A stretch of 32,000 bases of DNA from the NCBI RefSeq assembly GCF_000017305.1, contig NC_009664.2, positions 510,001 to 542,000 of the forward strand, written 5' to 3'. Under the pieces are notes generated by a model. That model saw only the letters and a list, made by a program, of their open reading frames with translations. It was not told where the DNA came from and searched no databases. This document shows, one piece after another, positions 3,229 through 25,294 of this stretch; positions within the stretch are counted from its first letter, which is position 1, and every line of letters begins with the position of its first letter. Both the position numbers and the translations under genes were made by a program. Source of the stretch: Kineococcus radiotolerans SRS30216 = ATCC BAA-149 (lineage in GTDB: Bacteria; Actinomycetota; Actinomycetes; Actinomycetales; Kineococcaceae).

Positions 3229-4244
3229 CCGCCCCCGACCGCGAGGTCCGGCTGGGCGCGGCGCCGCGGGCCCCGCGCCTGCGCCCGGTCCTCACCGCGA
3301 CCGCCGGCCCGGCGCTGGTGCTGCTGTCCTTCGGCGTCGGCAACCGGTGGCTGACGCTGCTCGGGTGCCTGCTGCTGGGTGCGGTGGGGGTCGCCGCGGC
3401 GACCTCGCCGCGGGTCCGGTCCCTGGCCGTGCGCGTCGACGTCCCGGCGCGCACCCGCGCCGGGGACGTGGTCGAGCACGTCGTGCACGTGCGCAACACC
3501 GGCTCCCGCGACCTGCCCGCCGCGCTGCTGCGCCTGCGCGGGGACGGGTTCGCGGAGGTCCACTGCGGGCTGCCGGCCGTCGCCGCCGGGGCGGTGGTCT
3601 CGGTGCGGGTGCCCCGGCGCGCGGGCCGTCGGGGCCTCAGCGGTGGGCCGGAGGTCGTCGTCGAGGCCTGCGACAGCCTGGGGCTGCTGCTGGTGAGCGG
3701 TTCCGGGCGGGTCCCCGCGCCCGTGCACGTCCACCCCGCCCCCGCCCCCGTGCCGGTCCTGCCGGCGCCGCCCGCGAGCGCCGGGGGGCTCGACGTGGCG
3801 GGGGTGCGGCCGTTCCGGCGCGGGGACGGGGCGTCCTCGCTGCACCGGCGGGCGAGCGCCCGCCGCGGCGCGGCGGGGCGGGGACCCGGTGGGCCCGGTG
3901 CGGGTCTGGTGGTGGTGGAGCGGGAGGCGGAGGCGGCGGGTCCGCTGGTGGTGGTGCTGGGGGCGTCGGGGGTGGAGGACGAGGTGGCGTGGGAGGAGCT
4001 GGTGGCCTCGGCGGCGGCGCTGGTGCGCCGCGAACTGGCGTCGGGGGGCGCGGTGCGGGTGGTGGCGGGCGGGGCGAGCGCCGCGGGGCCGGGGGCGCTG
4101 GACGTGCTGGCGGCCGTGGGCGCCCCGGAACCGGTGGCCGCGGGCGTGGTCGCGGCGCGCCGCTCCGCGGGCCGCTCGGGGCGGGTGCTGGTGGGTGAGC
4201 TCGTCGCGGGCGGTGCCCGGGCCCGCTGGGGGTACGCGTCGTGA
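3225..4244 (+). CDS. DUF58 domain protein (MoxR-associated)
   Basis: GTG 3225 overlaps the moxR TGA (GTGA 3225-3228), in the frame of ORF 2058..4244. It has two N-terminal TM segments and the DUF58-type motif GVRPFRRGDGASSLHRRASARRG (R-x-Y/F-x-x-GD ... H-W/R-x-x-SAR). Confidence 0.8.
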   Translation: MTAPDREVRLGAAPRAPRLRPVLTATAGPALVLLSFGVGNRWLTLLGCLLLGAVGVAAATSPRVRSLAVRVDVPARTRAGDVVEHVVHVRNTGSRDLPAALLRLRGDGFAEVHCGLPAVAAGAVVSVRVPRRAGRRGLSGGPEVVVEACDSLGLLLVSGSGRVPAPVHVHPAPAPVPVLPAPPASAGGLDVAGVRPFRRGDGASSLHRRASARRGAAGRGPGGPGAGLVVVEREAEAAGPLVVVLGASGVEDEVAWEELVASAAALVRRELASGGAVRVVAGGASAAGPGALDVLAAVGAPEPVAAGVVAARRSAGRSGRVLVGELVAGGARARWGYAS

Positions 4245-6262
4245 GGCGGGCGGGTCGTGCGGTGGCGGCGGACGGGTTCGCGACGCACGCGCCGGCTCCG
4301 GTGGCGCTGGGGTGCGCGGCCGTCGCGGTGGTGGCGTCGGCGTGGGGCCTGGCCGTGACCGGGGGCGTGCCGGTGGGCGGGCTGGTCGCGGCGGCGCTGG
4401 GGGTCGCCCTGGGGGTGCTGGTGCGCCGGGTGCCGCGGCGGGCGGCGGCGGTGGCGGTGGGCGTGCTGGGGGCCGCCGGGTGCGCGGTATGGGCGCCGGG
4501 GCTGGCGGCGTCCTCGGGGGCGCTGGCGGTGTGGCCGGTGCTGGGGCTGGCCCTGGCGGTGCTGCAGTTCGCGACCGCGCGCTCGCTGCGCGAGGTGCGG
4601 CTGGTGCTGGGGTTGTCGGTGCTGGTCGTGCTGGCCGCGGCGGGGGTGTCGCCGGTGGCGGCGCTGGTGGGCCCGCTGGTGCTGGTGTGGGGTTCGGTGC
4701 TGGCCGGGTTCGCGGGGGCGGTGCCGCACCGGGGGCCGGGCGCCGGGCCGCGGGGCCGGACGGTGCGCGCGGTCGTGGCGGCGGGGACGGCGGGCGTCGT
4801 GCTGTTCCTGCTCGTGCCCCCCACCGGGGGCGCCGTCCTGGCCGGTGGCGCGCTGGGACGCGCCGCGGCCGCTGGTGGGGCCGCCGCGGCGGCGCCGCGG
4901 TCGAGCGCGGCGTACGCGGGGGGCGAGCTGGACCTGTCCTCGCGCGGGGACCTGCCCGAGACGGAGCTGCTCAGCGTGCCGGCGGGATCGCCGTCGTGGT
5001 GGCGCTCGGGGGTCCTGGACACCTACGACGGGCGCACGTGGTCCGCGAGCGCGGCGACGGCGACGTGGTCGGCGGTGCCGGAGGGCTGGGCGGCCGGCGC
5101 GGAGGACGGGGCGTCGCCGGTGCGGCGGGTGGACGAGGTGCGCCCGCTGTCCTCGGAGTACCCGGCGCTGGTCAGCGCGGGGTCACCGGTGGGGGTGTCC
5201 CCGCGGGCCGACGGCACCCGGTTGAGGGTGCTGGGGACCTCGGTGCTGCTGACCCCGCCGGGAGCGGGGTACGCGGTGACGTCCCGGCAGACCCCGACGG
5301 TGGGCGACGCCGTCGCACCGGGGACGGCCGGGCCGGCTCCCGCCGACGCCGGCCGGTGGCTGCAGGTGCCCGCCTCGGTGCCGCAGCGCGTGCGGGACCT
5401 GGGCCGGGAGCTGGCCGACGGCGCCGGGGGCGGCGCGGCGGCGGTCGCGCTGGCGGTGGAGGAGCACCTGCGCTCGGTGGCGCGGTACTCGCTGGACGCA
5501 CCCGTGCCCGGGGCGGGTGAGGACGCGGTCGACGCGTTCCTCTTCGTGGACCAGGTGGGGTTCTGCGAGCAGTTCGCGAGCGCGGAGGTGGTGCTGCTGC
5601 GCTCGGCGGGGATCCCGGCGCGGCTGGTGACGGGGTTCGCGGCGGGCACCGAGGTGGACGGGCGGCGGGTGCTGCGCGGGGTGGACGCGCACGCGTGGGT
5701 GGAGGTCTGGGTGCCGGGCCAGGGGTGGACGACGTCGGACCCCACGGCGGGTGCGGTGCCGGTGGCCGGGTCCCGGAGCCCGTGGTGGGCAGGGGCGTGG
5801 TCGTGGGCCCAGCGGGCGGTGGGTGCGCTGCTGGACGGCACGGGGTCGCGGGTGGTGGCGGCGGCGGTGCTGGCCGGGGTCGTGGTCGGAGGTTGGCTGG
5901 TGCTGCGGGCGCGCCGCGGGACCGGCGCCCCGGCGAGCGCGGCGGTCCCGGTGGGCGCGCGGCGGCGGGGGGACGCCTCGCTGGTGGCGCTGCTGGTGGC
6001 CCTGGACCGCTTCGACGCGGCCCTGCCGCCGGATCGGCGCCGGGGCCCGGCAGAGGGGTTGTCGACGTGGCGGGCCCGGCTGGGGGCGGCGGGGTCCCGG
6101 GGGGTGCCGGTGGAGGCGCTGGGGGTGGTGGAGCGGGCGTGCTTCGCGCGGGCGGTGCCGGCGCGGGCGGAGCTGGACGGGGCCCGCGAGGCGCTGGAGC
6201 GCGCGGCGTCCCGGGTGCTGGGCGAGGCGGGCGCCGCGGGCCCGGCGGGCGGTCGGGGATGA
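4241..6262 (+). CDS. transglutaminase-like membrane protein (TgpA-like)
   Basis: GTG 4241 overlaps the DUF58 stop (GTGA 4241-4244). The N-terminal half is multi-TM. The transglutaminase core has Cys (GFCEQFASA), His (DAHAWVEVWVPGQGW) and Asp (TTSDPT), followed by a C-terminal TM segment. Confidence 0.85.
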   Translation: MRRAGRAVAADGFATHAPAPVALGCAAVAVVASAWGLAVTGGVPVGGLVAAALGVALGVLVRRVPRRAAAVAVGVLGAAGCAVWAPGLAASSGALAVWPVLGLALAVLQFATARSLREVRLVLGLSVLVVLAAAGVSPVAALVGPLVLVWGSVLAGFAGAVPHRGPGAGPRGRTVRAVVAAGTAGVVLFLLVPPTGGAVLAGGALGRAAAAGGAAAAAPRSSAAYAGGELDLSSRGDLPETELLSVPAGSPSWWRSGVLDTYDGRTWSASAATATWSAVPEGWAAGAEDGASPVRRVDEVRPLSSEYPALVSAGSPVGVSPRADGTRLRVLGTSVLLTPPGAGYAVTSRQTPTVGDAVAPGTAGPAPADAGRWLQVPASVPQRVRDLGRELADGAGGGAAAVALAVEEHLRSVARYSLDAPVPGAGEDAVDAFLFVDQVGFCEQFASAEVVLLRSAGIPARLVTGFAAGTEVDGRRVLRGVDAHAWVEVWVPGQGWTTSDPTAGAVPVAGSRSPWWAGAWSWAQRAVGALLDGTGSRVVAAAVLAGVVVGGWLVLRARRGTGAPASAAVPVGARRRGDASLVALLVALDRFDAALPPDRRRGPAEGLSTWRARLGAAGSRGVPVEALGVVERACFARAVPARAELDGAREALERAASRVLGEAGAAGPAGGRG

Positions 6263-12731: not shown

Positions 12732-14663
12732 TCACGCCGCGCGCCAGCAGGCGCGCCCGGCGGCCTTGGCGCGGTACATGGCGCGGTCGGCGGCGCGCAG
12801 CAGCTCCTCGGGCCCCAGGTCGCCCTCGGTGCGGGCCGCGCCGATGCTGGCGCTGACGGTGACCGTCCGCACCCCCAGGTCGACGGGGATGGAGATGCGC
12901 TCGCAGACCCGCTCGGCGATGGAGGAGAGCGCCTGGGCGTCGCCGACGTCCTCGCAGACCAGGACGAACTCGTCGCCGCCGATGCGGGCGGCGAGGTCCC
13001 CGGCCCGCAGCAGCCCGCGCAGCCGGTCGGCGACGTCGATCAGCAGGGCGTCGCCGGCGGCGTGGCCGAGGGTGTCGTTGACGTCCTTGAAGTGGTCGAG
13101 GTCGACGAAGAGCACGGCGCAGCCGCCGCCGCGGCGCACCGTCCGCGACAGGGCGCTGCGCAGCTGCTCCTCGGCCTTGGCCCGGTTGGGCAGCCCGGTG
13201 AGGGGGTCGTGCAGGGCGGCGTGCTCGAGCTGCTCGGCTTCGCGGCGGCGGGCGGTGACGTCCTCCACGAAGGCCAGGAACGCCGGCTCCCCCGAGCTGC
13301 TGGAGGTCAGCGACAGCGAGATCCGGGCCCAGACGACCTTCCCGCTGGGCAGCTCGTAGCACCGTTCGCGGTGCACGACCTCGGCGTCGCCGCTGAGCAG
13401 GGCCTGCAGCTGGTCCTCGGCCCGGGCGCGCTCGTCGCGGTCCCCGGCGTGGGGGCGCTCGTCCTCGGCGGGGGCGGCGGGGTCGAGGTGTTCCCCCGCG
13501 GGGGCGCCGACGAGCTCGGAGGGGTCGCGCTCCCAGAAGGTGCACAGCGCGTGGTTCACCTCGCTGATCCAGCCCTCCAGCCCGAAGAGCAGCATGCCCA
13601 CCGGACCCCGGGCGAAGATCTCGTGGAAGCGGCGCTCGGAGCCGGCGAGGGCGTCCATCGTCGTGATGGTCTCGGTGAGGTCCTGGGCGAGGCCCACCAC
13701 CCGCACCGGGACCCCGGCCGCGGAGCGGTCGGAGACGGTGGAGCGGGTGTGGATCCAGCGGTGGCCGCCGAAGGGGTCCAGGACGCGGTAGGTGCACTCG
13801 ACGATCTCCCCGGTGCCCGCGGTGCGCAGGGCCTCCAGGGCCCGCCGCACGCCGGGGGCGTCGTCGGGGTGCGGGGGTTCGGCGGGGGTGCTGCCGTCGC
13901 CGGGGGGCAGCCCCAGCAGGGAGGCGGGGCCGGTGTTCGCCCACTCCACCACCTGCTGCCCCAGGTGGATGCGGTAGATGGTGTCGGGGCTGGCGGAGAT
14001 GACGGCCTCCTGGCGGGCCAGCAGCGTCCGCAGCTGCTGCTGGGCGGCCCGTTCGGAGGTGATGTCGCGCAGGACCAGGACGGCGCCGTCGCCGTCGTCG
14101 GTGGTGACCTGGACGTGGGCGACGAGCAGCTGCCCGTCGCTGCGCGCGACGTCGACCTCCACGTCGACGTCACCCGCGCGCACGGCGCGGAGGAGGTCCA
14201 CGCCGGCGGGCGCCGCCGCGCGCAGCGCCGCGCCCTGGACGGGGTCCAGCCGGGAGCGGCCACCGGCAGGCTCCCCGCCGGCGGGGTCCCCCTGGCCCGG
14301 TAGCGGGGCGACGACGCTGAGGCCGAGCCACCAGGTCAGCCGGCGCTGTCCGAGGACCTCCTGCGGTCCCAGGCCCAGGGCGCGCGTCAGCCCGCGGGTG
14401 GCGTGGACCACCGCGCCCTCGGCGTCGAGCAGCAGCAGGGCGAGGCCGGAGCGTTCCAGGGCCCCGGCCAGCCGCGGGTCCACCGCGACGGGCGCGGCGC
14501 CCCCGGCGGGGCCCGAGGGGCCCGAGGACCGCACCGAGCGCACGGGTCGTCCCGGTCGCACCGTCTCCACCTGCCACCTCCGCGGTCGCACCCGGTCCGG
14601 GGCTGGGCCGCGGTGCTCACGGGTGCTGTCGGCCGCGCGGGGGGCGGCCTTGAGGGCGCGCAC
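12732..14663 (-). CDS. multi-PAS diguanylate cyclase (GGDEF with intact active site and I-site)
   Basis: ORF 12732..14663 (GTG start uncertain; GTG 14483 is an alternative). It has about three PAS-like repeats. The GGDEF domain contains HDPLTGLPNR, FVDLDHFKDVNDTLGH and LRAGDLAARIGGDEFVLV, i.e. RxxD five residues before GGDEF. No EAL domain. Confidence 0.85.
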   Translation of the reverse strand: MRALKAAPRAADSTREHRGPAPDRVRPRRWQVETVRPGRPVRSVRSSGPSGPAGGAAPVAVDPRLAGALERSGLALLLLDAEGAVVHATRGLTRALGLGPQEVLGQRRLTWWLGLSVVAPLPGQGDPAGGEPAGGRSRLDPVQGAALRAAAPAGVDLLRAVRAGDVDVEVDVARSDGQLLVAHVQVTTDDGDGAVLVLRDITSERAAQQQLRTLLARQEAVISASPDTIYRIHLGQQVVEWANTGPASLLGLPPGDGSTPAEPPHPDDAPGVRRALEALRTAGTGEIVECTYRVLDPFGGHRWIHTRSTVSDRSAAGVPVRVVGLAQDLTETITTMDALAGSERRFHEIFARGPVGMLLFGLEGWISEVNHALCTFWERDPSELVGAPAGEHLDPAAPAEDERPHAGDRDERARAEDQLQALLSGDAEVVHRERCYELPSGKVVWARISLSLTSSSSGEPAFLAFVEDVTARRREAEQLEHAALHDPLTGLPNRAKAEEQLRSALSRTVRRGGGCAVLFVDLDHFKDVNDTLGHAAGDALLIDVADRLRGLLRAGDLAARIGGDEFVLVCEDVGDAQALSSIAERVCERISIPVDLGVRTVTVSASIGAARTEGDLGPEELLRAADRAMYRAKAAGRACWRAA

Positions 14664-14687: not shown

Positions 14688-14924
14688 TCAGGTGCCGGCG
14701 CGGCGCACGATGCCCTGCAGGGCGGAGATGGCCTCCTCCGAGGCGGTGGCGGCGGAGATGTTGGCCTCGCGCACGGCGTCGTAGACCTCCTGGCGGTGCA
14801 CCTGGACGTCGCGGGGGGCCTCGATGCCCACCCGGACGACGTCACCGCGCACCTCGAGCACGCGCACGACGACCTCGTCGCCGATGACCACGGATTCCCC
14901 GGCCTTGCGCGTCAGGACCAGCAT
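14688..14924 (-). CDS. csrA: carbon storage regulator CsrA (flagellar/FliW-type with C-terminal extension)
   Basis: Within ORF 14688..14960. The canonical N-terminus [48 protein letters not shown] starts at ATG 14924 (upstream in-frame ATGs at 14936 and 14960). It closely parallels B. subtilis CsrA, MLVLSRKINEAIQIG...GIDAPK..IHRKEIY. The C-terminal tail is [23 protein letters not shown]. Confidence 0.9.
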
Positions 14925-15047: not shown

Positions 15048-15302
15048 TCAGAAGTCGTCGCGGCGCCGTCCGGGGACCCCGGGGACGGCGTCCTGCTCCC
15101 CGGCGGGGTGCGGGGGGTTCTCCGCGGCCTGGGCCTGGTAGCCGCGCACCACGCCGCGCACCAGGTGCCCGGCCACGGCGGTGACCACCAGGGCCAGGAC
15201 CAGGTGGAGCAGGGCGGTGTCCACGTCGCCGGTGCCCTCCAGGGCCGCCAGCACCGAGGGCCCGGCCAGCAGCAGGCTGACGGCCAGCACGATCGCGGTC
15301 AT
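15048..15302 (-). CDS. small membrane protein (2 predicted TM helices), unknown function
   Basis: ORF 15048..15302. Its ATG overlaps the PilZ gene stop (ATGA 15299-15302). Hydrophobic segments are TAIVLAVSLLLAGPSVLAAL and LLHLVLALVVTAVAGHLV. Confidence 0.55.
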   Translation of the reverse strand: MTAIVLAVSLLLAGPSVLAALEGTGDVDTALLHLVLALVVTAVAGHLVRGVVRGYQAQAAENPPHPAGEQDAVPGVPGRRRDDF

Positions 15303-16027
15303 CGGTCTCCTCCACGGCGTTGCCTGATCTGGGTCTGCATGACGTAGCGGCGCAGGCGGTCCGCGGCCGGGACCGGTTCGGTGAAGGCCACGACGACCTC
15401 CAGCAGCGCCGGGTCGAGGGAGTCCAGCGAGCGCACGACCTGCCCGACCTGGTCCACGGGGGACCCCTCGAGGTCGAAGGACGTGCGCACCAGCCGGCCC
15501 AGCCGCAGCCAGGTGCCCACCGGCACGCTCAGCGCCGACCCGCCCTCGCTGAGGTCGACGAGGTGGGCGGTGACGACCGGTTCGGCCGCGGCGTCGACGG
15601 GGTCGACCTCGCGCTGCATGGGGTCACCGGGCACCGGGGACAGCCGGGCCGTCCCGGTGGCCGGCACCCGCGCGTAGCGGCGGCGCTGCTCGACGACGAC
15701 CTCGCCGCAGGGGGCGAGGTCCCACGCCGCCACCCGGCGGCGCACGACCTCGGCGATCAGGAAGTCCTGCTTGCTGCGGCCGCGCGTGCCGGCCCAGGCC
15801 ACGGTGACGGGGAGGCCGGGGGCCACCACGTGCAGGTCCCCGCGGAAGCCGGGGGCGGCCACCACCAGGCTGGCCTCGCCGGTGTCCTCGACCCGCGTGG
15901 GCAGCCGGATCAGCTCACCCCCCAGGGTGTCGGGCATCTGCAGCTCGACCCAGACCCGGTCGTTGAGACCGGGCCACTGCGCGGCGGCGCGGGTCAGCTG
16001 GGCCCCGGGGGCGGCGCGTCGGGCCAT
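15299..16027 (-). CDS. YcgR/MotI-like PilZ-domain c-di-GMP receptor (flagellar brake candidate)
   Basis: ATG 16027 lies within ORF 15299..16309 and is preceded by GAGGACGAGG. Length is 242 aa. PilZ motifs are RxxxR (EQRRRYARV) and DxSxxG (VDLSEGGSAL), with an N-terminal PilZN-like half. It starts 31 nt after the flhF-like stop. Confidence 0.8.
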   Translation of the reverse strand: MARRAAPGAQLTRAAAQWPGLNDRVWVELQMPDTLGGELIRLPTRVEDTGEASLVVAAPGFRGDLHVVAPGLPVTVAWAGTRGRSKQDFLIAEVVRRRVAAWDLAPCGEVVVEQRRRYARVPATGTARLSPVPGDPMQREVDPVDAAAEPVVTAHLVDLSEGGSALSVPVGTWLRLGRLVRTSFDLEGSPVDQVGQVVRSLDSLDPALLEVVVAFTEPVPAADRLRRYVMQTQIRQRRGGDR

Positions 16028-16058: not shown

Positions 16059-18512
16059 TCAGCGCGCGCCGTGGTCGCCGGCGGCGTCCAGCAGCAGCCC
16101 GGCCCAGGCGCCGGAGGTGGCGGGGCGCCCGTCGAGGAAGCCGACCGGCACGTCCAGGGAGAGGACGTCCAGGGGGTCGGGGCTCTCGGCGGCGCGGTGC
16201 ACGGCGAGGCGGCGCGCGGGGAGGCCGACGGCCTCCAGGGCGCGCAGCAGGCTGGCGACGGCGTGGCTGCGGCGGGTGGCGTCGACGCAGACGACGACGG
16301 AGGCGGCACCGATCTCGGCGGCCATGCGGGCGGCGCGCTCGGCGTCGGCCCCGGTGGGGCGGGCCGGGACGGCGACGGTCAGCGGGGCGCTCCAGCGGCG
16401 GGCCTGGTCCTGGCGGGCGGGCAGCTCGTCGGCGGTGACGGTGTTCTGGACGTCGGCGCGACCCAGCACCACGGGGGCCTCGGAGCCGACCTCGTCGGCG
16501 ACGAGCAGCGCGGCGGAGACGACGGCGTCGGCCTCGCCGATGACGACGACGAGCTCGCCGGCGCCCACGCGCAGCGGCGCGGGGACCTCGATGTCGCGGG
16601 CCAGGCGCAGCACGTCGCCGGTGTCCTGCGGCTCGCGGTAGACCGGGCGCTGCACCGCACGCTCGCTGTAGGTGGACATCGGTTCACGGTAAGTCAGATC
16701 CATGCTCATCGCCTCGTTCTCGTCCCCGTCACGTGCACTGGTGGTCTGGTAGCCGTTCACGGCCGTGTACTCGCGGGCGACGCGCTCGTCCTGACGCGGT
16801 GCGCGCTCGTCCTGCTCGGGGGCGTAGTGGCCCGCGAGGTCCTGCTGGTAGGCCGCCTCGAAGTCCTGGCCGGGCTGCTCGTGCTCCCCGGCCCACTCCG
16901 CGCGGCGCTCCTCGATCCCGCGCTCGGCGAAGCGGTCGCCGAACTGGTCACCGAACTGGTCGGCGAACTGGTCCGCCACGGCCGCCGGGCGGCGGAGCTC
17001 CGGGCGGCGGACGGGCCCGCGGGCCTCGAACTGGTCGGCTCGGCGCCCCGGGGAAGCGTTGGGGGCGACGCCGTTGGCCGCACCGAACTGGTCAGACACG
17101 CGATCCTCCGAGCTGCGAACGGTCCGGGTCGAGGCTTCGACCACGGGGCGACCCGGACGGGGACGAGCGGGCCGCGCAGGCTGCTTCGTCACCGAGCGTA
17201 CATCAGCCGTTACTCCAGTCGCAGAAGTTCGCGTGGGCCGGACCGCCTCGCCCCCCGTGCTCGCGGAGGAGCGCATCGAGGCCAGGGTCTGGGCGAAGGA
17301 GTCGCTCTCCGTGGAGATCGGGCGGTGCGGGCGCAGCGGGGCCTGCTCGCGGCGCGGGGCGGCCTGGGCCGGGACCGGGGCCTGCGAGCGCCCGGCGGTG
17401 AACATGGCCTCGAGGCGGTTGGTGCCCTCGGCGGCGTCGGCGGCGGCGAGGACCTCGCCCAGCGACCGGGTGGCCGGCGCGGTGCGGGCCACCCGCTCGG
17501 CCTGGCGGCGGCGGACGTCGGCCCGGGCCTCCTCGCGGCGCAGCTCCTGCTCGCGGGCGGCCTCCCGGCGGGACACCTCCTGCGCGTGCTGGCGCTCGAT
17601 CTGCTGCTGCCTCATCCGCTCCTCTTCCCGGGCTCGACGGTCGGCTTCCTGCTGCGCGGCCAGGCGCTCCTGCTCGGCGCGCTGCTGCTCGGCGCGCTGC
17701 TGCTCGGCGCGCTGCTGCTCGGCGCGCTGCTGCTCGGCCCGCTCCTGCTCGATGCGCTGCTGCTCGATGCGCTGCTGCGCAGCGCGCTCGGCACGTTCCT
17801 GCTCGGCGCGCTCGGCCTCGGCGCGCTCGATGCGCTCGATCTCGGCCCGCTCGGCCTCGGCCCGCTCGGCGTCGGCGCGCTCCTGCTCGAAGCGCTCCTG
17901 CTCGGCGCGCTCGGCCTGGCGGCGAGCCTGCTCGAGGAGCTGGGCCTCGAAGCCCGCGGCCTGCGCGCCGGCCTCGACCTCGCGGTCGTGCTCGACGTCG
18001 CCACCGGTCTCGACCGGGGTGCTGTCACCCGTTTGCGCGATCACGCCGTGGTCCTCGGCACCTGCGGGGAGAACCTTGAACGCGGCCGGCGCGGTGAGCT
18101 CGGGGGCGTCGGCGCCGGAGGCGCGCAGCACCTCCAGCAGACCCTGGCGGGCGGCCTCGAAGTCCTCCGCGGGCTGGGCCTGGGCGGGCGCCGGGACGGG
18201 CTCGGGGAGGGACTCCGCGGCGGACTCCGCGGCGTCGGCGGCGGCGAGGAGGGCCTCGAAGTCGAGGGCCTCGCGCTCCTCGCCCTCCACCGGGCCGGGG
18301 CCGGCCTGCGCACCCGCGGCGGGGTCCTCGGAACCGGTCTCGCTGTCCATCTCGACGGTCACCTCGTAGCGCTCCTTGGAGAAGAACCCGGCGACACCAC
18401 CGGAACGGATGCGTTCGGCGCGGATCACGCGGGCGGTCTCGCCGTGGGTCTCACGGACCTGCGTCAGCAGTTCCTGCAAGTCAGAACCTTCAAGAAGCAA
18501 GTGCATGGACAC
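16059..18512 (-). CDS. flhF: FlhF-like protein, 817 aa, with FlhF-type N-terminal domain, about 500-aa low-complexity/coiled-coil insert and degenerate (P-loop-less) NG-like C-terminus
   Basis: ORF 16059..18512. The N-terminus MSMHLLLEGSDLQELLTQVRETHGETARVIRAERIRSGGVAGFFSKERYEVTVEMD matches the FlhF B-domain pattern. The position after flhA is the conserved one. The C-terminal ~200 aa has the SRP-GTPase-like strand/helix rhythm (ELVVVIGEADAVVSAALLVA ... VVVCVDATRRS), but there is no GK[ST] anywhere and only 3 Lys in the whole protein. Confidence 0.7.
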   Translation of the reverse strand: MSMHLLLEGSDLQELLTQVRETHGETARVIRAERIRSGGVAGFFSKERYEVTVEMDSETGSEDPAAGAQAGPGPVEGEEREALDFEALLAAADAAESAAESLPEPVPAPAQAQPAEDFEAARQGLLEVLRASGADAPELTAPAAFKVLPAGAEDHGVIAQTGDSTPVETGGDVEHDREVEAGAQAAGFEAQLLEQARRQAERAEQERFEQERADAERAEAERAEIERIERAEAERAEQERAERAAQQRIEQQRIEQERAEQQRAEQQRAEQQRAEQQRAEQERLAAQQEADRRAREEERMRQQQIERQHAQEVSRREAAREQELRREEARADVRRRQAERVARTAPATRSLGEVLAAADAAEGTNRLEAMFTAGRSQAPVPAQAAPRREQAPLRPHRPISTESDSFAQTLASMRSSASTGGEAVRPTRTSATGVTADVRSVTKQPARPARPRPGRPVVEASTRTVRSSEDRVSDQFGAANGVAPNASPGRRADQFEARGPVRRPELRRPAAVADQFADQFGDQFGDRFAERGIEERRAEWAGEHEQPGQDFEAAYQQDLAGHYAPEQDERAPRQDERVAREYTAVNGYQTTSARDGDENEAMSMDLTYREPMSTYSERAVQRPVYREPQDTGDVLRLARDIEVPAPLRVGAGELVVVIGEADAVVSAALLVADEVGSEAPVVLGRADVQNTVTADELPARQDQARRWSAPLTVAVPARPTGADAERAARMAAEIGAASVVVCVDATRRSHAVASLLRALEAVGLPARRLAVHRAAESPDPLDVLSLDVPVGFLDGRPATSGAWAGLLLDAAGDHGAR
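17664..17783. repeat. about 8 tandem 15-bp units (GCGCTGCTGCTCGGC and variants) inside flhF-like, encoding (AEQQR)n / (IEQQR)n
   Basis: Four perfect units lie at 17679-17738, flanked by degenerate units. A second coding repeat of 12-bp period (GAACTGGTCNCC) at 16929-16976 encodes ADQFADQFGDQFGDRF. Confidence 0.85.
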
Positions 18513-20598
18513 CGCTCACCGATCCAACCGTCTCGATCCGGGGGTGGTTGCTCACGTCGTCGTAGGAGAGGACGTGCAGGCGGCCCACCGCCACCTTCAG
18601 CAGGCGGCGCAGGGGGGCTCGCAGAGGGGGCGCGCACACGAGGACTGCACTGATGCCGTGCTGTTCGGCACGTTCCAGGCAGGAACTTGAGCCGGTCACC
18701 AGGTGCTCGGCCGTCGCGGCGTCCAGGGCGAGGCTCGCGCCGTGCTCCCCGGGGCGCAGGGACTCCGCCAGCTGCTGCTCCAGGACCGGGTCCAGGGTGA
18801 TGACGTGCAGCGTGCCGTCCTGCTCGTGGACGGCCGCGACGGCCGGGCCGAGCGAGCGGCGGGCCGCCTCGACGAGGCCGTCGAGGTCGGAGCCGGCCTT
18901 CGCCTTGAGCGAGAGGGCCTCGAAGATGCGGGCGAGGTCGCGGATGGGGACGGCCTCGTCGAGCATCGCCTGCAGGACGCGCTGGACCTCGCCCAGCGTG
19001 AGCACCGCGGGGGTGAGCTCGTCGACGACGGCGGGGTGGGTCCGCTTGAGGGCCTCGACCAGGGAGCGGACGTCCTCGCGGGAGAGCAGGCGCGGAGCGT
19101 GGGTGCGGACCAGTTCTCCGAGGTGGGTGATGAGGACGCTGGCGCGGTCCACGACGGTGGCGCCGGTGAGCTGGGCCTGGTGGCGCAGCTCGGCGGGGAT
19201 CCACTTGCCGGCCAGGCCGAACACCGGCTCCACGGTGGCGCGCCCGGGCAGGCCGTCGAGGTTGTCGCCCAGGGCCAGGACCTGCCCGGGCGGGGCGGTG
19301 CCGCGGGCGACCTCGACGCCGGAGATGCGCACCGCGTAGGTGGACATCGGCAGGTCGAGGGAGTCGCGGGTGCGCACCGGGGGCACGACGAGACCCAGCT
19401 CGAGGGCGATCTTGCGGCGCAGGGCGCGCACGCGCTCCAGCAGGTCGCCACCGCCGGAGGTGTCGACGAGGTCGACGAGGTCGGGGGCCAGGACCACCTC
19501 GAGGGGGTCCACCCGCATCTCCTCCAGGAGGTTCTCGGCGGCCTCATTGGGGTTGACCGGGGCGGGGGTCAGCTCGGCCAGCGCCGCGGCGCGCTCGTCC
19601 TGCTGGTCGCGCTTGGCGATGCGGGTGGAGGCGAAGAACGCCAGCCCACCGACGAACAGGAAGGGCAGCTTGGGCATGCTGGGGATGAGCGCGAGCACGA
19701 CCATGGCCCCGCCGGCGATCTGGAAGGCCATCTTCTGCTGGGTGAACTGCTTGATGGCCTCGGTGCCCATGTCCCCGGTGGAGGTGGAGCGGGTCACGAT
19801 GAGGCCGGTGGCCACGCTCAGCAGCAGGGCGGGGACCTGGGTGACGAGCCCGTCGCCGATGCTCAGCAGGGCGTACTTGTTGATGGACTCCGCGGGGCTC
19901 AGACCGTGCTGGACCATCCCGATGGCGAACCCGCCGATGAGGTTGATCAGCATGATGATGATGCCGGCGATGGCGTCGCCCTTGACGAACTTCGAGCCAC
20001 CGTCCATGGCGCCGTAGAAGTCGGCCTCGGCGCTGACGTCGGCGCGGCGCTGACGGGCGGTGGCCTCGTCGATGAGCCCGGCGTTGAGGTCGGCGTCGAT
20101 GGCCATCTGCTTGCCGGGCATGGCGTCGAGGGTGAAGCGGGCCCCGACCTCGGCCACGCGCTCGGCGCCCTTGGTGATGACGACGAACTGGATGACGACC
20201 AGGATCAGGAAGACCACGAGGCCGATGACCAGCGAGCCGGAGATGACGAAGTGGCCGAAGGCCTCGATGACCTTGCCCGCGAAGCCGTCACCGAGGACCA
20301 GCCGCGTCGAGGCCACGTTGAGGCCGAGGCGGAAGAGGGTGAGGACGAGGATCAGCGAGGGGAAGACGGAGAAGTCCAGCACCCGCTTGACGAACATCGT
20401 CACCAGCAGCGCCATCAGCGACAGCGTGATGTTGACGGCGATGAGGAAGTCCAGCACCGTCGCCGGCAGCGGCACGATGAGCAGCAGGATGATGCCGACG
20501 ACTCCCGCCGGGACCACCATCTGCGAGATGTTGGGGATTCGCACCGCACCGCCTGTTGTTCGCGGGAGCCCTCGCGGGTCCCTCGTCCAGCGGCCCAT
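18490..20598 (-). CDS. flhA: flagellar type III export gate protein FlhA
   Basis: ORF 18490..20598. The N-terminal TM region contains LLLIVPLPATVLDFLIAVNITLSL and the FHIPEP-type block AERVAEVGARFTLDAMPGKQMAIDADLNAG. A large cytoplasmic C-domain follows. The 3' end overlaps the flhF-like start by about 20 nt. Confidence 0.95.
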   Translation of the reverse strand: MGRWTRDPRGLPRTTGGAVRIPNISQMVVPAGVVGIILLLIVPLPATVLDFLIAVNITLSLMALLVTMFVKRVLDFSVFPSLILVLTLFRLGLNVASTRLVLGDGFAGKVIEAFGHFVISGSLVIGLVVFLILVVIQFVVITKGAERVAEVGARFTLDAMPGKQMAIDADLNAGLIDEATARQRRADVSAEADFYGAMDGGSKFVKGDAIAGIIIMLINLIGGFAIGMVQHGLSPAESINKYALLSIGDGLVTQVPALLLSVATGLIVTRSTSTGDMGTEAIKQFTQQKMAFQIAGGAMVVLALIPSMPKLPFLFVGGLAFFASTRIAKRDQQDERAAALAELTPAPVNPNEAAENLLEEMRVDPLEVVLAPDLVDLVDTSGGGDLLERVRALRRKIALELGLVVPPVRTRDSLDLPMSTYAVRISGVEVARGTAPPGQVLALGDNLDGLPGRATVEPVFGLAGKWIPAELRHQAQLTGATVVDRASVLITHLGELVRTHAPRLLSREDVRSLVEALKRTHPAVVDELTPAVLTLGEVQRVLQAMLDEAVPIRDLARIFEALSLKAKAGSDLDGLVEAARRSLGPAVAAVHEQDGTLHVITLDPVLEQQLAESLRPGEHGASLALDAATAEHLVTGSSSCLERAEQHGISAVLVCAPPLRAPLRRLLKVAVGRLHVLSYDDVSNHPRIETVGSVSGVHALAS

Positions 20599-20719: not shown

Positions 20720-21106
20720 TCACCAGCCCGCCGTCTCCACGGCCGCGGCGAGGGCCCGCTCGATCGCCGCGCCGAGCGCGCTGACCACGAAGGGCTTGGT
20801 GAGGTAGATCGCCCCCAGCGCCTCCCCCGCGGCGATGTCCTCCGGGCGCACGCGCGCGGAGAGGAAGACCGCGGGCAGGTGGGCGTGCTCGGGCTGCTCC
20901 CGCAGGGTGCGCAGGACCTCCAGGCCGGTCATGCCCGGCATGGCCACGTCGAGGACGAGGACCTCGGGGGCCCCGCGCTCGGCGACGACGGTGAGCGCCT
21001 CGGGGCCGGAGGCGGCCGAGACGACGCGGTGGCCCAGCCCGCGCAGGCGCAGTTCGACGAGCTGGCGGATGTCGGGGTCGTCCTCGACGACGAGCACTCG
21101 GGCCAC
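20720..21106 (-). CDS. stand-alone CheY-like receiver domain response regulator (no output domain)
   Basis: ORF 20720..21106. GTG start is preceded by AGGAGG (6-nt spacer). Receiver signature residues: VVEDDPD, phospho-acceptor VLVLDVAMPGMTG, and conserved Lys in YLTKPF. Length is 128 aa. Confidence 0.9.
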   Translation of the reverse strand: MARVLVVEDDPDIRQLVELRLRGLGHRVVSAASGPEALTVVAERGAPEVLVLDVAMPGMTGLEVLRTLREQPEHAHLPAVFLSARVRPEDIAAGEALGAIYLTKPFVVSALGAAIERALAAAVETAGW

Positions 21107-21161
21107 GGGGTTCCTCCTGGGGTCGACGGACTGACGTCGGCCCCATCGGCGGCGGGCGGCG

Positions 21162-23024
21162 TCAGCTGAGGGAGGGCCCGGCGGAGGGGTGGGCGCCCGC
21201 GGGGCGCGCGGCGGGGAAGGTGCAGCGCAGGGTGGCGCCGCCGCCGGGGGTCTCCTCGGCGCGGATGCGCCCGCCGTGGCGCTCGACGATGCGCAGGCAG
21301 GTGGCCAGCCCGATCCCGTGGCCGGGGCGCGCCGCGGGGGTCCCCCCGGGGCGCTCCTCGCCCAGCGGGGCGACGGCGAACATGGCGAAGACCTGCTCGC
21401 GCTGGCCGGCGGGGATGCCGCGGCCGTTGTCGGCGACGAGCAGCTCCCACCCGCCCCCGGGCAGCGGGCGGGTGCTCACCCGGACCCGGCACGGGCGCAG
21501 CGGGGAGCGGTAGCGCACCGCGTTGCCGACGAGGTTCTGCAGCAGCTGCCGCAGCAGGACGGGGTCGGCGCGGGTCTCGACCTCGACCCCCGTCCCGGCG
21601 CACGCGCCGCCCGCGCCACCGCCCGTGCCGGTCGCGATCGGCTCGAAGGCGATGTCGGCGTCGTCGGCGGCCGGGCCCAGGTCCTCCACGACGTGGGCCA
21701 GGACGTCGGGCAGCAGGACCGGGCGCACGCTGAACCCGGTGGAGCCGGCGCGGGCGTGGTCGAGGACGGCCTCGATGAGGCCCTGCATGCGCAGCGCGGC
21801 GCGCACCGCGGTGGCCATCCACTCCCGCCCCTGCCCGCCGAGGGCCTCGCCGTGGACGTCGAGGACCAGTTCCAGGTAGCCCAGGACGGCGGTCAGCGGG
21901 GAGGCCAGGTCGTGGCTGGCCACGGCGGCGAGGTGGACGAGCTCCTCGTTGGAGCGGCGCAGCTCGGCCACCGCGGCGGCCAGTTCCCCGCCCTGGTGGC
22001 GCAGCTGCTCCCCCGCCTGCTCCAGGGCCGCGATGCGGGCCCGGTCGGCGGTGATGTCCTGCATCGCCACGACGGCGCCGAGGACGCGGCCCTCGTCGTC
22101 GTGCAGGGCGCGCCCGGTGACCAGGACCCGCACGGGGTCGCCGTCCCGGGGGGCGATGACCACCTCGGCGTCGCGGACGGAACCCTCCGCCAGCGCCCGC
22201 CGCAGCGGGACCCGGCCGGCCTCCAGCGGGGTGCGGCCGTCGGCGTCGTAGAGGACGTGGGTGGGCGCGGACCCGGCCGGGGGCGGGCCGGAGCCGGCGT
22301 CCATGCCGTGGAAGCGGCGGGCGGCGGGGTTGAAGGCGGTGAGCGCGCCGTCGGCGTCGCAGGCGACGACGCCCACCTCGAGGCTGTCCAGCAGCGCCTG
22401 GGTCAGCTCCTCGCGCGCCTGCAGCTCCCCGAGGGTGAGCTCGGCGAGCGCGCGCTGCTCCTCGACCTCGTCGAGCAGGCGCTGCTGCTCGCCGGTGCGG
22501 CGGTGGCGGCCCAGCAGGGCCGTCGCGACGCCGGCGAGGTCGCGCAGCCGCTCGAGCTGGTCCGCGCTCAGCTCGCGGGGGGCGACGTCGCCGACGCAGA
22601 GGCTGCCCAGGCGGTGGCCCTCGGCGGTGACCAGCGGGGCGGCGGCGTGGAAGACGACCTCGCCCAGCCGCCCGTCGACCCACGCGGAGGTGGCGTAGCG
22701 GGGGTCGCGGCGGGCGTCGGGGACGTGGACGACGCGGGGGTCGTCGAGGTCGCGCGCGCCCAGCGACTCCGCCCGCTCGCTCCCGCCCCGGGCGGCGCCG
22801 ACGGCGGCCACCCGGTGCTGCCGGGTGGCGTCGAGGAGGTCGAGGGTCGCGGTGGGGACCCCGACGAGGGCGGCGGCGACGCGCACGAGGGCGTCCAGCT
22901 CGGGGTCGGCGGCGGCGGCGGGCAGGTCGTGGGCGCGCAGGGCCGCGAGCCGGGCGGCCTCCGCGGGTGCGGCGGCCGCGCGCGGGTCCCGGGCGCGCGG
23001 GTCGACGACGGCGGGGCGGGTCAC
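21162..23024 (-). CDS. cytoplasmic sensor histidine kinase (GAF - coiled coil - PAS - HisKA - HATPase_c)
   Basis: GTG 23024 overlaps the upstream kinase stop (GTGA 23021-23024), in the frame of ORF 21162..24062. H-box is AAVASHDLASPLTAVLGYLEL. N-box is LLQNLVGNAVRY, G1 is VADNGRGIP and G2 is GHGIGLATC. No TM segment seen. Confidence 0.85.
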   Translation of the reverse strand: MTRPAVVDPRARDPRAAAAPAEAARLAALRAHDLPAAAADPELDALVRVAAALVGVPTATLDLLDATRQHRVAAVGAARGGSERAESLGARDLDDPRVVHVPDARRDPRYATSAWVDGRLGEVVFHAAAPLVTAEGHRLGSLCVGDVAPRELSADQLERLRDLAGVATALLGRHRRTGEQQRLLDEVEEQRALAELTLGELQAREELTQALLDSLEVGVVACDADGALTAFNPAARRFHGMDAGSGPPPAGSAPTHVLYDADGRTPLEAGRVPLRRALAEGSVRDAEVVIAPRDGDPVRVLVTGRALHDDEGRVLGAVVAMQDITADRARIAALEQAGEQLRHQGGELAAAVAELRRSNEELVHLAAVASHDLASPLTAVLGYLELVLDVHGEALGGQGREWMATAVRAALRMQGLIEAVLDHARAGSTGFSVRPVLLPDVLAHVVEDLGPAADDADIAFEPIATGTGGGAGGACAGTGVEVETRADPVLLRQLLQNLVGNAVRYRSPLRPCRVRVSTRPLPGGGWELLVADNGRGIPAGQREQVFAMFAVAPLGEERPGGTPAARPGHGIGLATCLRIVERHGGRIRAEETPGGGATLRCTFPAARPAGAHPSAGPSLS

Positions 23025-25294
23025 GGTGCGCCTCCGGTCCGGGCGGGGTCGCGGTCCTCCAGCAGCGGCAGCTCCAGCCGCGCGGTGGTGCCCTGGCCCT
23101 CCACGGACTCCAGGTCCAGGGACCCCCCGTGCAGGCGGACCAGGTCGCGGGCGATGGTGAGGCCGAGCCCGGCGCCGGGCACGGCGAGCGCGGTGGCGTT
23201 GGACCCGCGCGCGAAGCGGGCGAAGACGGCGTCGGTCTCCCCCGCCGGGATCCCCATCCCGTTGTCCTGCACCACGATCCGTACCCGCCCGGGGTGGTTC
23301 TCCACCCGCAGGCGGACCAGGGACCCCACGGGGGAGAACTTCACGGCGTTGTCCACCACGGCCAGCACGGCGCGGTGGAGGTGCTCGGCGTCGCCGCGGG
23401 TGCGCAGGCCGGTGAGGTCGGCGGGCGGGGTCGTGCAGCGCAGCGTGCCGCCGCGGGTGGCGCCGCCCTGCACGGTGCGCGCGACCCCGGCGACGAGGTC
23501 GGCGACGGTGGTGGTGGTGCGCACCGGGGCCCCGGGGCCCGCGGCGAGGGGCTCCACCCGCGAGAGCAGCAGCAGGTCCTCGATGAGCGAGCGCAGCCGG
23601 TCGGTGTTGCGCTCGACGATGCCCAGGACGGCGGCGACGTCCTCGGGGACCTCCCCGAGGGCGCCGTCGCGCAGCAGCTCCAGGTAGCCGGCGATGCTGG
23701 TCAGGGGGGTGCGCAGCTCGTGCGAGACGGTGGCCAGCAGGTCCGACTTCACCGACTCCACCTCCCGCAGCTCCCCCAGCAGCCGCTCCTGGGCGCGGTA
23801 GAGACCGGCCAGGACCAGGGCGCGGGCCAGGTCGACGGCCACCGAGCGGGCCAGTTCGACCTCCGGCACCGACCAGTCGCGCGCCCGGGCTCCGACGAGG
23901 GTGAGCAGGCCGTGCGGGGCTTCCCCGACGCCGATGGGGACGAGCAGCGCCGCGCCGGCGCGGGCGCCGGGGAGGTCGTCGAGCAGCTCGCGGGGGACCT
24001 CGGAGGGGGTGGTGCCGGGCACGGCGTGGACCTCCCCGCCCGCGTGCAGCCGCCGCAGCCACTCCGCGGCCCCGGGGGCGCCGGAAGGGTCACCGGGCAC
24101 GGCGGTGCCGCCGGGGCCCGGGGCGTCGAGGGGGGCCAGCGGCGGGCGGGCCCACTGCTGGGCGATGGGGGTCACCCCGGAGCCGGTGAGCAGGCGCACC
24201 CGGACCCGGGCGACGTCGAGCTCCTCCCCCAGCCGGGTCACGGCCACCTGCAGGGCGTCGTCGGCGACGAGCTGGTCGCGGACCTGGCGGCCGATGTCAC
24301 CGGCGAGGCGGTGCAGGTGCGCGGACTGCTCCGCGGCCTGCAGCAGCCGGCGGTTCTCCCGGGCCAGGTCGTTGAGGGCGAGCGCCACGGCGCGGACCTC
24401 GCCGGGGCCGCGGGTGGGGTCGGCGACGGGGGTGGCGCGCTGGGCGCGTCCGCCGGGAGCGGTGCGCAGGGCGTCGAGGACGTCGACGAGGGCCCGCAGG
24501 GGGTCGACGAGCGCGTGGCGGGTGCGGACACCGGTGGTGACGACCACGGCGAGAGCGGCGGCGAGGGTGAGGGCGGTGACGACGAGGGCACCGGTGCGGG
24601 CCCGGTCCTCGGCCGAGGTGGCCTCGTCGCGCTGGTGGCGCACGAGGACGTCGAGGCGCTCGTTCGCCTCGTGCAGGGCGTCGAAGGCGTCGGCCTCGGC
24701 GGTGGCGGCGGCGACCACGGCGGCGCCGCGGTCGGGGTCGGTGCCGGCCAGCCAGACCTCCGCGAGCCGGGTCTGCTCGTCGAAGAGGCTGCGCTGCAAC
24801 GGGTCGGTGAGGAGGGACTCGACGTCCCCGCGCAGGGCGGGCAGCGTCCGGACGGACTGGCGGTAGGCCTCCAGGTGGTCCGGCCGCAGGGTGTCGCGGT
24901 AGTCGCGCAGCGCGGCGTCGGCCTCGGCGGTGGTCAGCTGCAGGGCGGTGTTGGCCGCCTCGAGCCGGCGCAGCTGGGTCTCGTGGGCCCGGGAGGCCCC
25001 GGTGACCAGCAGCCCGCCCGCCCCGGAGACCCCCACGAGCAGCAGCAGGACGACGACGACGCCGTGGGCGCGGGTGAGGCGGGCCCCCACCGAGGTGCCG
25101 GTGCGCCCGCGGGGGCGGGAGGCCGGACGGGCTGCGGGGTGGGTGTCGGGGTGGGTGTCGCCGCCGGGCCGCGGCGGGTGCGCGCGGTCCACGTCCGGCG
25201 CCCTGCGCGCACCACCCGGTCGGCCCACACCGTCACCATCGGCCCGGTCCCCGGCGGTCTTGAACGACCCCGGGGGGCCCGCTTCGCGCGGCAC
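23021..25294 (-). CDS. membrane sensor histidine kinase (TM - CHASE3-like - TM - HAMP - GAF - HisKA - HATPase_c)
   Basis: ORF 23021..25294 (GTG, 3 nt after the flhB stop; alternative GTG 25090 just before the first TM). Segments: TM HGVVVVLLLLVGVSGAGGLLV, periplasmic helical region ALRDYRDTLRPDHLEAYRQS (CHASE3-like), second TM ALVVTALTLAAALAVVV. H-box is LATVSHELRTPLTSIAGYLELL. N/G boxes are VVDNAVKFS, VQDNGMGIP, GAGLGLTIA. Confidence 0.8.
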   Translation of the reverse strand: MPREAGPPGSFKTAGDRADGDGVGRPGGARRAPDVDRAHPPRPGGDTHPDTHPAARPASRPRGRTGTSVGARLTRAHGVVVVLLLLVGVSGAGGLLVTGASRAHETQLRRLEAANTALQLTTAEADAALRDYRDTLRPDHLEAYRQSVRTLPALRGDVESLLTDPLQRSLFDEQTRLAEVWLAGTDPDRGAAVVAAATAEADAFDALHEANERLDVLVRHQRDEATSAEDRARTGALVVTALTLAAALAVVVTTGVRTRHALVDPLRALVDVLDALRTAPGGRAQRATPVADPTRGPGEVRAVALALNDLARENRRLLQAAEQSAHLHRLAGDIGRQVRDQLVADDALQVAVTRLGEELDVARVRVRLLTGSGVTPIAQQWARPPLAPLDAPGPGGTAVPGDPSGAPGAAEWLRRLHAGGEVHAVPGTTPSEVPRELLDDLPGARAGAALLVPIGVGEAPHGLLTLVGARARDWSVPEVELARSVAVDLARALVLAGLYRAQERLLGELREVESVKSDLLATVSHELRTPLTSIAGYLELLRDGALGEVPEDVAAVLGIVERNTDRLRSLIEDLLLLSRVEPLAAGPGAPVRTTTTVADLVAGVARTVQGGATRGGTLRCTTPPADLTGLRTRGDAEHLHRAVLAVVDNAVKFSPVGSLVRLRVENHPGRVRIVVQDNGMGIPAGETDAVFARFARGSNATALAVPGAGLGLTIARDLVRLHGGSLDLESVEGQGTTARLELPLLEDRDPARTGGAP

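Follow-up and report, generated by a model that had tools for sequence, protein, structure and literature searches.

What does a flagellar operon encode in the position of flhF when the gene product no longer carries a phosphate-binding loop? The question is raised by a 32,000-nucleotide stretch of the Kineococcus radiotolerans SRS30216 genome (here referred to as the window), in which an open reading frame (ORF) at 16059-18512 directly follows flhA on the minus strand, as is the case for all genes and protein segments given below by coordinates unless the plus strand is stated. The pair of FlhF and FlhG is regarded as a conserved GTPase/ATPase switch for flagellar site and number (review PMC12826062). 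An initial annotation, made from the letters of the window, had described the 817-residue product as an FlhF homologue turned into a nucleotide-independent scaffold or pseudo-GTPase. The ORF was confirmed, and the pseudo-GTPase reading is borne out: the motifs G1, G3 and G4 are destroyed, a G fold of the signal recognition particle (SRP) type is predicted, and no flhG is found nearby. With high confidence, drawn from sequence comparison together with structure prediction, the protein is regarded as the Actinomycetes form of FlhF, an FlhF-derived pseudo-GTPase. While the pseudo-GTPase itself is supported in this way, we infer its independence of nucleotide and its role as a scaffold; the combined reading, an FlhF-derived pseudo-GTPase which acts as a GTP-independent tether, is favoured with correspondingly less confidence.

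The gene is probably Krad_1674 of K. radiotolerans SRS30216, annotated as 'hypothetical protein'; its product is 100% identical to the cluster member P0170, which carries the same label at NCBI and UniProt. Translation from GTG gives 817 amino acids, from an ATG two codons further on 815, and database entries use three start codons (806, 815 or 817 amino acids). The GC content at third codon positions (GC3) is 0.92, typical for coding sequence in this genome. Upstream, flhA (18490-20598) is identified by Pfam FHIPEP (E = 2e-249) and TIGR01398 (791 bits); the start of the FlhF-like gene overlaps its stop codon by 23 nt, an overlap kept in three Kineococcus species, and the claim that the gene occupies the FlhF position immediately after flhA in the flagellar operon thus stands.

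The N-terminal residues 1-58 (18339-18512) form the FliG-interaction domain (FID), the folded first part of the FlhF B-domain, in agreement with the B-domain pattern recognized earlier. A profile built from 54 family N-termini aligned with the profile of canonical FlhF N-termini at 99% in hhalign (E = 6e-18). The FlhF model TIGR03499 was matched with E = 2e-7 over its N-terminal part only, the score of 31.3 bits lying below the curated family cut-off of 174.15, and a Pfam scan of the full 817-residue protein returned no match at E ≤ 1. In the full-length AlphaFold2 (AF2) model, strands at residues 3-9, 28-37 and 46-55 and a helix at 12-23 are predicted with a per-residue confidence (pLDDT) of 80-97. 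The same arrangement, with three antiparallel strands beside one helix, is reported from the crystal structure of the Shewanella FlhF FID (PMC11236974), and the top match of the family profile among Protein Data Bank (PDB) sequences was the FlhF FID entry 9en1 (E = 0.01). The ratio of nonsynonymous to synonymous substitution rates (dN/dS) of this domain, measured against the Kineococcus gypseus orthologue, is 0.26.

The C-terminal residues 631-817 (16062-16622) comprise one remnant helix followed by a degenerate G domain of the SRP type (pseudo-G), as indicated by AF2, Foldseek and hidden Markov model (HMM) comparison. An AF2 model of residues 635-817, computed from an alignment of 25 sequences, reached a pLDDT of 93.2 and a predicted TM-score (pTM) of 0.90, and the best 50 Foldseek matches in the PDB were all SRP-type GTPases (FtsY, Ffh, SRP54, SRalpha and FlhF), with query-normalized TM-scores of 0.50-0.68, E = 2.8e-5 for FtsY (1fts) and E = 1.1e-4 for FlhF (8r9r). 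At the level of profiles, a family HMM of 104 sequences matched a P-loop-bearing FlhF of Solirubrobacteraceae with E = 1.2e-6 (Z = 1e6), in an alignment that spans the P-loop strand, and hhalign of the pseudo-G profile against 28 canonical FlhF NG domains gave 84% (E = 7e-6), the match being confined to the latter half of the G domain. The proposal that the C-terminus is related to SRP-type GTPases has therefore passed the profile and structure searches suggested for it. Searches of PDB sequences with profiles from two C-domain alignments (A1 and A2) yielded chance matches only, and BLAST or PSI-BLAST surveys would for this reason miss the domain. Of the NG region originally proposed, the G-like part was upheld, but not the N domain: instead of a helical bundle, strand 1 has just one helix (residues 631-640) in front of it, and disorder is predicted for residues 418-630. 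Other family members retain a helical remnant of the N domain of ~45 residues.

Within this fold, the nucleotide-binding motifs are gone. The former P-loop site (G1) is occupied by ELVVVIGEADAVVSAA (residues 653-668, 16509-16556), with ELVVVIGEADAVV beginning at residue 653, as the first reading had it; the alignment sets canonical GPTGVGKTT against GEAD--AVVS, a deletion of two residues which leaves neither GxxGxGK[ST] nor GK[ST]. In the model, strand 1 leads almost directly into helix 1, and therefore no phosphate-binding loop is formed. The whole protein contains three lysines (K46, K146 and K443, the number counted earlier) and no GK[ST]. The segment VVCVDATRRS (residues 740-749, 16266-16295), previously placed at the DTAGR motif, was off by one motif: it aligns with LVLSATTK of FlhF and corresponds to the family signature VVDATRK, while the G3 position (DTAGR) is taken by LTVAVPARPT (residues 711-720, 16353-16382), with VAVPARPT at the aligned motif. 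At the G4 position (TKLDET), LAVHRAAES is found (residues 769-777, 16182-16208), such that VHRAAES replaces TKxD(ET). The segment PVGFLDGRPAT (residues 789-799, 16116-16148), in the position of P-x-x-Y-x-T-x-GQ-x-VPDDI of FlhF, is conserved and followed by the near-invariant W803. Canonical GTP binding by the domain would appear improbable from its sequence.

Loss of these motifs is accompanied by conservation of others. Over 104 C-domains, G659, V743, D744, A745, R747, P780, L784, P789, D794, G795, A798 and W803 are conserved at 86-98% (D744 88%, A745 92%, R747 87%, P789 97%, D794 93%, W803 94%), the sequences coming from sampled genera of Micromonosporales, Geodermatophilales, Kineosporiales and Micrococcales. 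These positions fall outside the canonical G1, G3 and G4 motifs, a pattern that speaks for new constraint and not for decay. The dN/dS of the pseudo-G domain against K. gypseus is 0.21. Pseudo-GTPases are GTPase folds without nucleotide-binding residues and have been described mainly in eukaryotes. The Kineococcus protein shares with this class the retained G fold, here predicted, the loss of catalytic and binding motifs and the purifying selection, and its domain presumably serves as an interaction module; it differs in being bacterial and of the SRP/SIMIBI class, not of the Ras/TRAFAC type.

How far does this form of FlhF extend? Word-indexed homologue searches gave no more than 4 and 22 proteins, among which were many fragments on short contigs, and an exhaustive search of representatives was therefore needed. 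With phmmer and the C-domain as query, 1.84 billion representatives yielded 156 relatives at E ≤ 1e-3, the domain being C-terminal in the matches listed. Walker A (G....GK[ST]) was present in none of the 151 proteins inspected. Most full-length members start with the FID motif, and intact ORFs were found in 59 full-length representatives; those relatives with a source name are without exception annotated as 'hypothetical protein', and the family domain has no recorded Pfam domain. In a synteny sample of 80 flhA loci from other genomes, a P-loop-less FID protein directly follows flhA in Krasilnikovia, Dactylosporangium, Pseudosporangium, Actinoplanes, Blastococcus, Sanguibacter, Arthrobacter, Cryobacterium, Naasia, Glaciihabitans and Curtobacterium. 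Loss of the motifs is a trait of the whole lineage and not the oddity of one gene; the large size of the Kineococcus protein is a separate, genus-specific matter.

Intermediate states survive in the basal classes. Thermoleophilia retain G1, G3 and G4. In Gaiellales and two Solirubrobacteraceae loci, G1 (GxxGxGKT) is retained and G3 and G4 read DTPP and TQLE or THAQ; G1 is lost in one Solirubrobacteraceae locus and two Chloroflexota loci. Read from canonical FlhF through Thermoleophilia and Gaiellales/Solirubrobacteraceae to Actinomycetes, the aligned sequences describe a stepwise decay series. The basal Actinomycetota and Chloroflexota proteins (loci L037, L044, L048, L051, L017 and L032) resemble the Kineococcus protein in gene position, in the FID, in the absence of FlhG nearby and in G3 and G4 motifs that are already degraded; the difference lies in the retained G1 of Gaiellales and of the two Solirubrobacteraceae loci, whereas the Actinomycetes family has none and carries the VVDATRK signature instead. 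In the Chloroflexota homologues after flhA (L017, 10069-11436; L032, 10042-11352) the P-loop lysine is replaced (GAPGSGRTT and GPPGSGRTT), DTAGR and TKxD are missing, and no FlhG lies nearby. Decay of the FlhF GTPase, independent or shared, may thus have occurred outside Actinomycetota.

Beside these genes the activator is likewise missing. A MinD-type gene with KGGxGK[ST], i.e. FlhG, follows flhF in 14 of 14 loci outside Actinomycetota and Chloroflexota versus 0 of 26 within. Within the window, G....GK[ST] is absent from all six frames, hence no MinD-type flhG is encoded there, as had been noted.

Most of the protein is linker, some ~575 residues between the two end domains. It was first described as a ~500-residue insert of heptad-like E/R/A/Q repeats and DQF repeats in a protein about twice the normal FlhF size. 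E/R/A/Q repeats and DQF repeats do occur, and 817 residues compare with 413 in canonical FlhF, but the clean Kineococcus-specific insertion is confined to residues ~81-340, a stretch shared by no more than 3-5% of 63 aligned family members. Doubled size is not a family trait, given that the median of full-length members (449 residues) is close to that of canonical FlhF. The suggested comparison of orthologue lengths gave 827 residues in K. gypseus and 876 in K. xinjiangensis.

Following the FID, residues 59-181 (17970-18338) are acidic, rich in Ala, Pro and Glu and mostly disordered, with short helices at 85-98 and 116-131; residues 59-184 carry a net charge of -22, and the dN/dS of the acidic segment against K. 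gypseus is 0.79. From residue ~81 on, the alignment occupancy is 0.03-0.05, higher before, and residues ~81-181 thus form part of the genus-specific insertion. The remainder of the insertion is a Kineococcus-specific, E/R/Q/A-rich array of 5-residue repeats (residues 182-343, 17484-17969), predicted by AF2 as a single unbroken α-helix of 162 residues (pLDDT 88-97) with a calculated length of ~24 nm at 0.15 nm per residue. It is encoded in part by a 15-nt tandem repeat (17664-17911, ~17 copies) which specifies AEQQR/AERAE pentapeptides. A heptad coiled coil was ruled out by the 5-residue period (autocorrelation 0.65 at lag 5 versus 0.12 at lag 7), the 9% share of hydrophobic residues and the 15-nt DNA repeat.

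Single α-helix (SAH) spacers of the ER/K type are exemplified by myosin VI, myosin X and caldesmon. The predicted Kineococcus helix, a candidate for this class, resembles them in its E/R/Q/A-rich composition with few hydrophobic residues, in opposite charges at i/i+3 and i/i+4, and in its predicted continuity over 162 residues. On the other hand, it is based on Arg and Gln with almost no Lys, is built of 5-residue tandem repeats and lacks conservation even among Kineococcus species. The array of K. gypseus, of the AERLE type, is similar, K. xinjiangensis has P/Q/V-rich repeats instead, and in another K. radiotolerans strain (P0005 and P0173, 819-828 residues) 13 extra residues lie in the 15-nt repeat array, the copy number of which varies within the species. 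Helix and acidic stretch together represent a low-complexity expansion specific to Kineococcus, produced by slippage of the 15-nt repeat, that only lengthens the linker; the insert as a whole is a fast-evolving low-complexity linker of which only the considerable length is kept within the genus.

Two segments of the linker are conserved in the family. Motif 1, SLGEVLAAADAA (residues 350-361, 17430-17465; SLGEVLAAADA at 350-360), is an acidic amphipathic helix (predicted at 354-361), and motif 2, HRPISTESDSFAQTLASM (residues 396-417, 17262-17327, also delimited as 396-414; helix predicted at 404-417), gave no regular-expression match in canonical FlhF. Both are candidate partner-binding sites. 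The rest of the linker, residues 418-630 (16623-17261), is disordered (AF2 pLDDT < 50) and includes DQF(G/A) repeats at 474-525, DQF itself occurring five times between residues 474 and 522, as well as a 12-nt repeat at 16924-16973. Against K. gypseus, dN/dS is 0.60 for residues 346-634 and 0.53-0.79 across the parts of the linker.

Compared with well-studied FlhF (B. subtilis; S. putrefaciens, PDB 8r9r and 9en1), the Kineococcus protein thus has in common the FID, a disordered linker, the C-terminal G fold and a gene directly after flhA with start/stop overlap, and sequence continuity is provided by the P-loop-bearing FlhF of basal Actinomycetota. It is set apart by the loss of G1, G3 and G4 with the 2-residue P-loop deletion, an N domain reduced to one helix, a shortened insertion-box region, the lack of FlhG, and its own family motifs VVDATRK, LDGRPAT, W803 and the two linker motifs. 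How such a protein might work can be rationalized from the known interactions of FlhF. The FID binds FliG-MC, and FliG bound to FlhF can bind FliF, not FliM/FliN; HubP, a landmark protein, is bound by the NG domain regardless of GDP or GTP, and it is FlhG that resets the cycle (PMC11236974). The FlhF of P. aeruginosa relies on its G domain to maintain polar localization, and assembly requires its B and N domains (PMC12713375). In the Actinomycetes form, the FID would capture FliG and, via FliG, the MS-ring protein FliF, while the pseudo-G domain, perhaps together with both linker motifs, would dock to another site or partner without GTP. Basal-body assembly would in this manner be nucleated without an FlhG-driven GTP cycle; both tethering modules would have been kept, and the nucleotide cycle dropped along with FlhG. 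This mechanism, a nucleotide-independent adaptor for FliG, is put forward tentatively, its chances being judged slightly below even.

Several points weigh against it, or against the FlhF assignment. Flagellar assembly in P. aeruginosa requires the N domain, which the Kineococcus protein lacks, and GTP binding there also regulates FliG binding (PMC12713375); consequently, the ancestral mechanism cannot simply carry over. In Nocardioides and three Microbacterium loci (L006, L010, L013 and L015), no coding sequence for FID or pseudo-G was found within 8 kb of flhA, from which it follows that the FlhF descendant is dispensable, lost or moved in some flagellated Actinomycetes. Foldseek does not separate FlhF from FtsY or Ffh (E = 1e-4 versus 3e-5), and the assignment to FlhF for this reason rests on the FID, on synteny and on the intermediates, with the 84% hhalign match limited to the second half of the G domain. 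Finally, the family members are known from sequence and prediction alone, and a landmark or partner of the pseudo-G domain is hypothetical.

Other explanations have to be set against the tether. If the gene were a decaying relic of FlhF left behind after the loss of FlhG, with no role or only a minor function in, for instance, translational coupling or spacing within the operon, it would be easily understood that every catalytic motif is gone, that the gene is missing beside flhA in Nocardioides and Microbacterium, and that the linker is near-neutral with a repeat number variable within the species; flagella in Actinobacteria have moreover been described as evolving degeneratively (PMC10746217). 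However, a functionless relic is disfavoured by the purifying selection on both end domains (dN/dS 0.21-0.26), and the newly near-invariant residues D744, A745, R747, P780, P789, D794 and W803, kept across the 104 sequences, the intact ORFs of the 59 full-length representatives and the well-packed C-domain in the AF2 model (pLDDT 93) likewise speak for a maintained protein, such that this explanation is considered improbable. An even more trivial origin, two genes fused by a frameshift or an assembly error in a repeat-rich, high-GC region, could be suspected from the tandem repeats, from a fall in GC3 to 0.68 at codons 421-480 and from the frequency of long spurious ORFs at 77% GC. Yet the order FID-linker-pseudo-G recurs with the same flanking genes in K. 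gypseus, K. xinjiangensis and the second K. radiotolerans strain, and the same architecture is found in the 59 full-length family representatives, leaving next to no weight for an artefact. The intact orthologues of 827 and 876 residues in the same synteny rule out the frameshift or assembly error that had been named as the result which would overturn the initial annotation.

The two remaining alternatives accept a functional protein and differ in what it does. The G-like domain might still bind a ligand, e.g. GTP, (p)ppGpp or cyclic di-GMP (c-di-GMP), through non-canonical residues such as DATRK, and thereby retain a switch. By alignment, the conserved VDATR(K/R) and LDG lie at the positions of the FlhF LVLSATTK strand and GQ-x-VPDDI; SRP GTPases bind (p)ppGpp, and the PDB entries 7o9i, 7o9g and 7o9f are among the fold matches; and the gene adjoins a PilZ gene and lies near a PAS-GGDEF gene. 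A sensor of this kind is nevertheless doubtful, to about the same degree as the relic, since the phosphate-binding loop is shortened by two residues with strand 1 running almost directly into helix 1, the G4 specificity motif is gone, and the PilZ neighbour is found in Kineococcus only. Somewhat less unlikely, though far from favoured, is a FliG chaperone or assembly checkpoint, by which FliG would be held off FliM/FliN until FliF is available; in zoospores it would determine when or how many flagella are formed, not where, and the pseudo-G domain would serve only dimerization or stability. Such a role would be consistent with FlhF-bound FliG binding FliF but not FliM/FliN (PMC11236974), with the life style of Kineococcus, cocci that bear flagella only on zoospores under particular conditions (PMC2587704), and with the lack of an identified landmark homologue. 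It overlaps, however, largely with the tether model, from which it is computationally inseparable, and the strongly conserved surface-type motifs of the pseudo-G domain suggest a specific partner and not mere stability.

Whatever the mechanism, the family changes the picture of flagellar gene content in this phylum. According to a 2023 survey, the later-branching actinobacterial classes are without FlhF (PMC10746217), and a 2025 review on the diversification of FlhF and FlhG leaves Actinobacteria unmentioned (PMC12826062); no paper connecting FlhF with pseudo-GTPases came up in a literature search, subscription journals not being covered. Contrary to the survey, the later classes do keep a recognizable FlhF descendant under purifying selection. 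It represents a lineage-wide SRP-type pseudo-GTPase derived from FlhF, unrecognized in current annotation, by which the flagellar gene inventory of Actinomycetes is corrected and more than 150 clusters of 'hypothetical' proteins receive a name. The lineage also offers a natural experiment in which the tethering roles of FlhF, FID to FliG and G domain to landmark, are split from the GTP cycle: nucleotide machinery and activator were dropped, and stepwise intermediates survive in basal classes. Orthologues accessible to experiment exist in Actinoplanes missouriensis, where null mutants are routine. A more far-reaching idea, to which only a small probability is given, is that flagellated Actinomycetes start and place their flagella via an FlhF rewired as a nucleotide-free adaptor, whose pseudo-G domain and linker motifs engage partners that bear no relation to HubP or FlhG, with number and timing governed by other inputs. 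If so, such control might be exerted by c-di-GMP through the adjacent PilZ gene or by developmental regulators of the zoospore, and the ~24-nm helix of Kineococcus would be a physical spacer that sets the reach from anchor to FliG.

The gene is embedded in a long flagellar cluster. On the minus strand, fliL, fliM, fliN, fliO, fliP, fliQ, fliR, flhB, two histidine kinase genes, a gene for a receiver protein and flhA are followed by the FlhF-like gene, a PilZ/YcgR-like gene, the gene of an 84-residue protein with two transmembrane (TM) segments, csrA and a PAS-GGDEF gene. The flagellar table of the K. radiotolerans genome paper lists Krad1673 as flhA and Krad1677 as csrA and skips the three intervening genes (PMC2587704). 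Within the FlhF-like gene, the fall in GC3 mentioned above concerns 17073-17252, compared with 0.88-1.0 across most of the gene, and the reading frame across it is backed by the K. gypseus orthologue.

Directly downstream of the FlhF-like gene, the PilZ/YcgR-like gene (15299-16027; Pfam PilZ, E = 2e-10; start taken at the ATG of MARRAAPG) is found in each of the three Kineococcus species (K. gypseus, locus L081, 8513-9232; K. xinjiangensis, locus L082, 8628-9377); this neighbour is restricted to Kineococcus, other Actinomycetes loci being without it there. The flagellar operon segment is closed by csrA (14688-14924; Pfam CsrA, E = 1.5e-24), after which the PAS-GGDEF gene is found (12732-14663), also in K. 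xinjiangensis. The PilZ and PAS-GGDEF genes suggest control of the motility module by c-di-GMP. Between them lies the two-TM gene (15048-15302). Proteins of this type, ~80-113 residues long, are encoded directly after FlhF or its relative, or one gene beyond, in the aligned Actinomycetota and Chloroflexota loci (e.g. L001, 11572-11865; L006, 10103-10372; L017, 12094-12351), and in Nocardioides, without an FlhF-like gene, the two-TM gene comes straight after flhA. No significant Pfam family was found for the protein, which may be an unrecognized flagellar component or a membrane partner.

Upstream, between flhB and flhA, the stretch 20720-25294 encodes a histidine kinase with a CHASE3 domain (23021-25294), a second one with a PAS domain and a response regulator that consists of a receiver only (20720-21106); the PAS kinase is listed as an ORF at 21162-24062, which overlaps the CHASE3 kinase and is uncertain in its start. 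In K. gypseus and K. xinjiangensis, flhB is directly followed by flhA, and the block of kinases and receiver is thus a lineage-specific regulatory insertion in the operon of export genes. Unrelated to the flagellar cluster, the left end of the window encodes a MoxR-type AAA ATPase (2140-3228, plus strand; AAA_3, E = 1e-55) and a TgpA-like transglutaminase membrane protein (4241-6262, plus strand).

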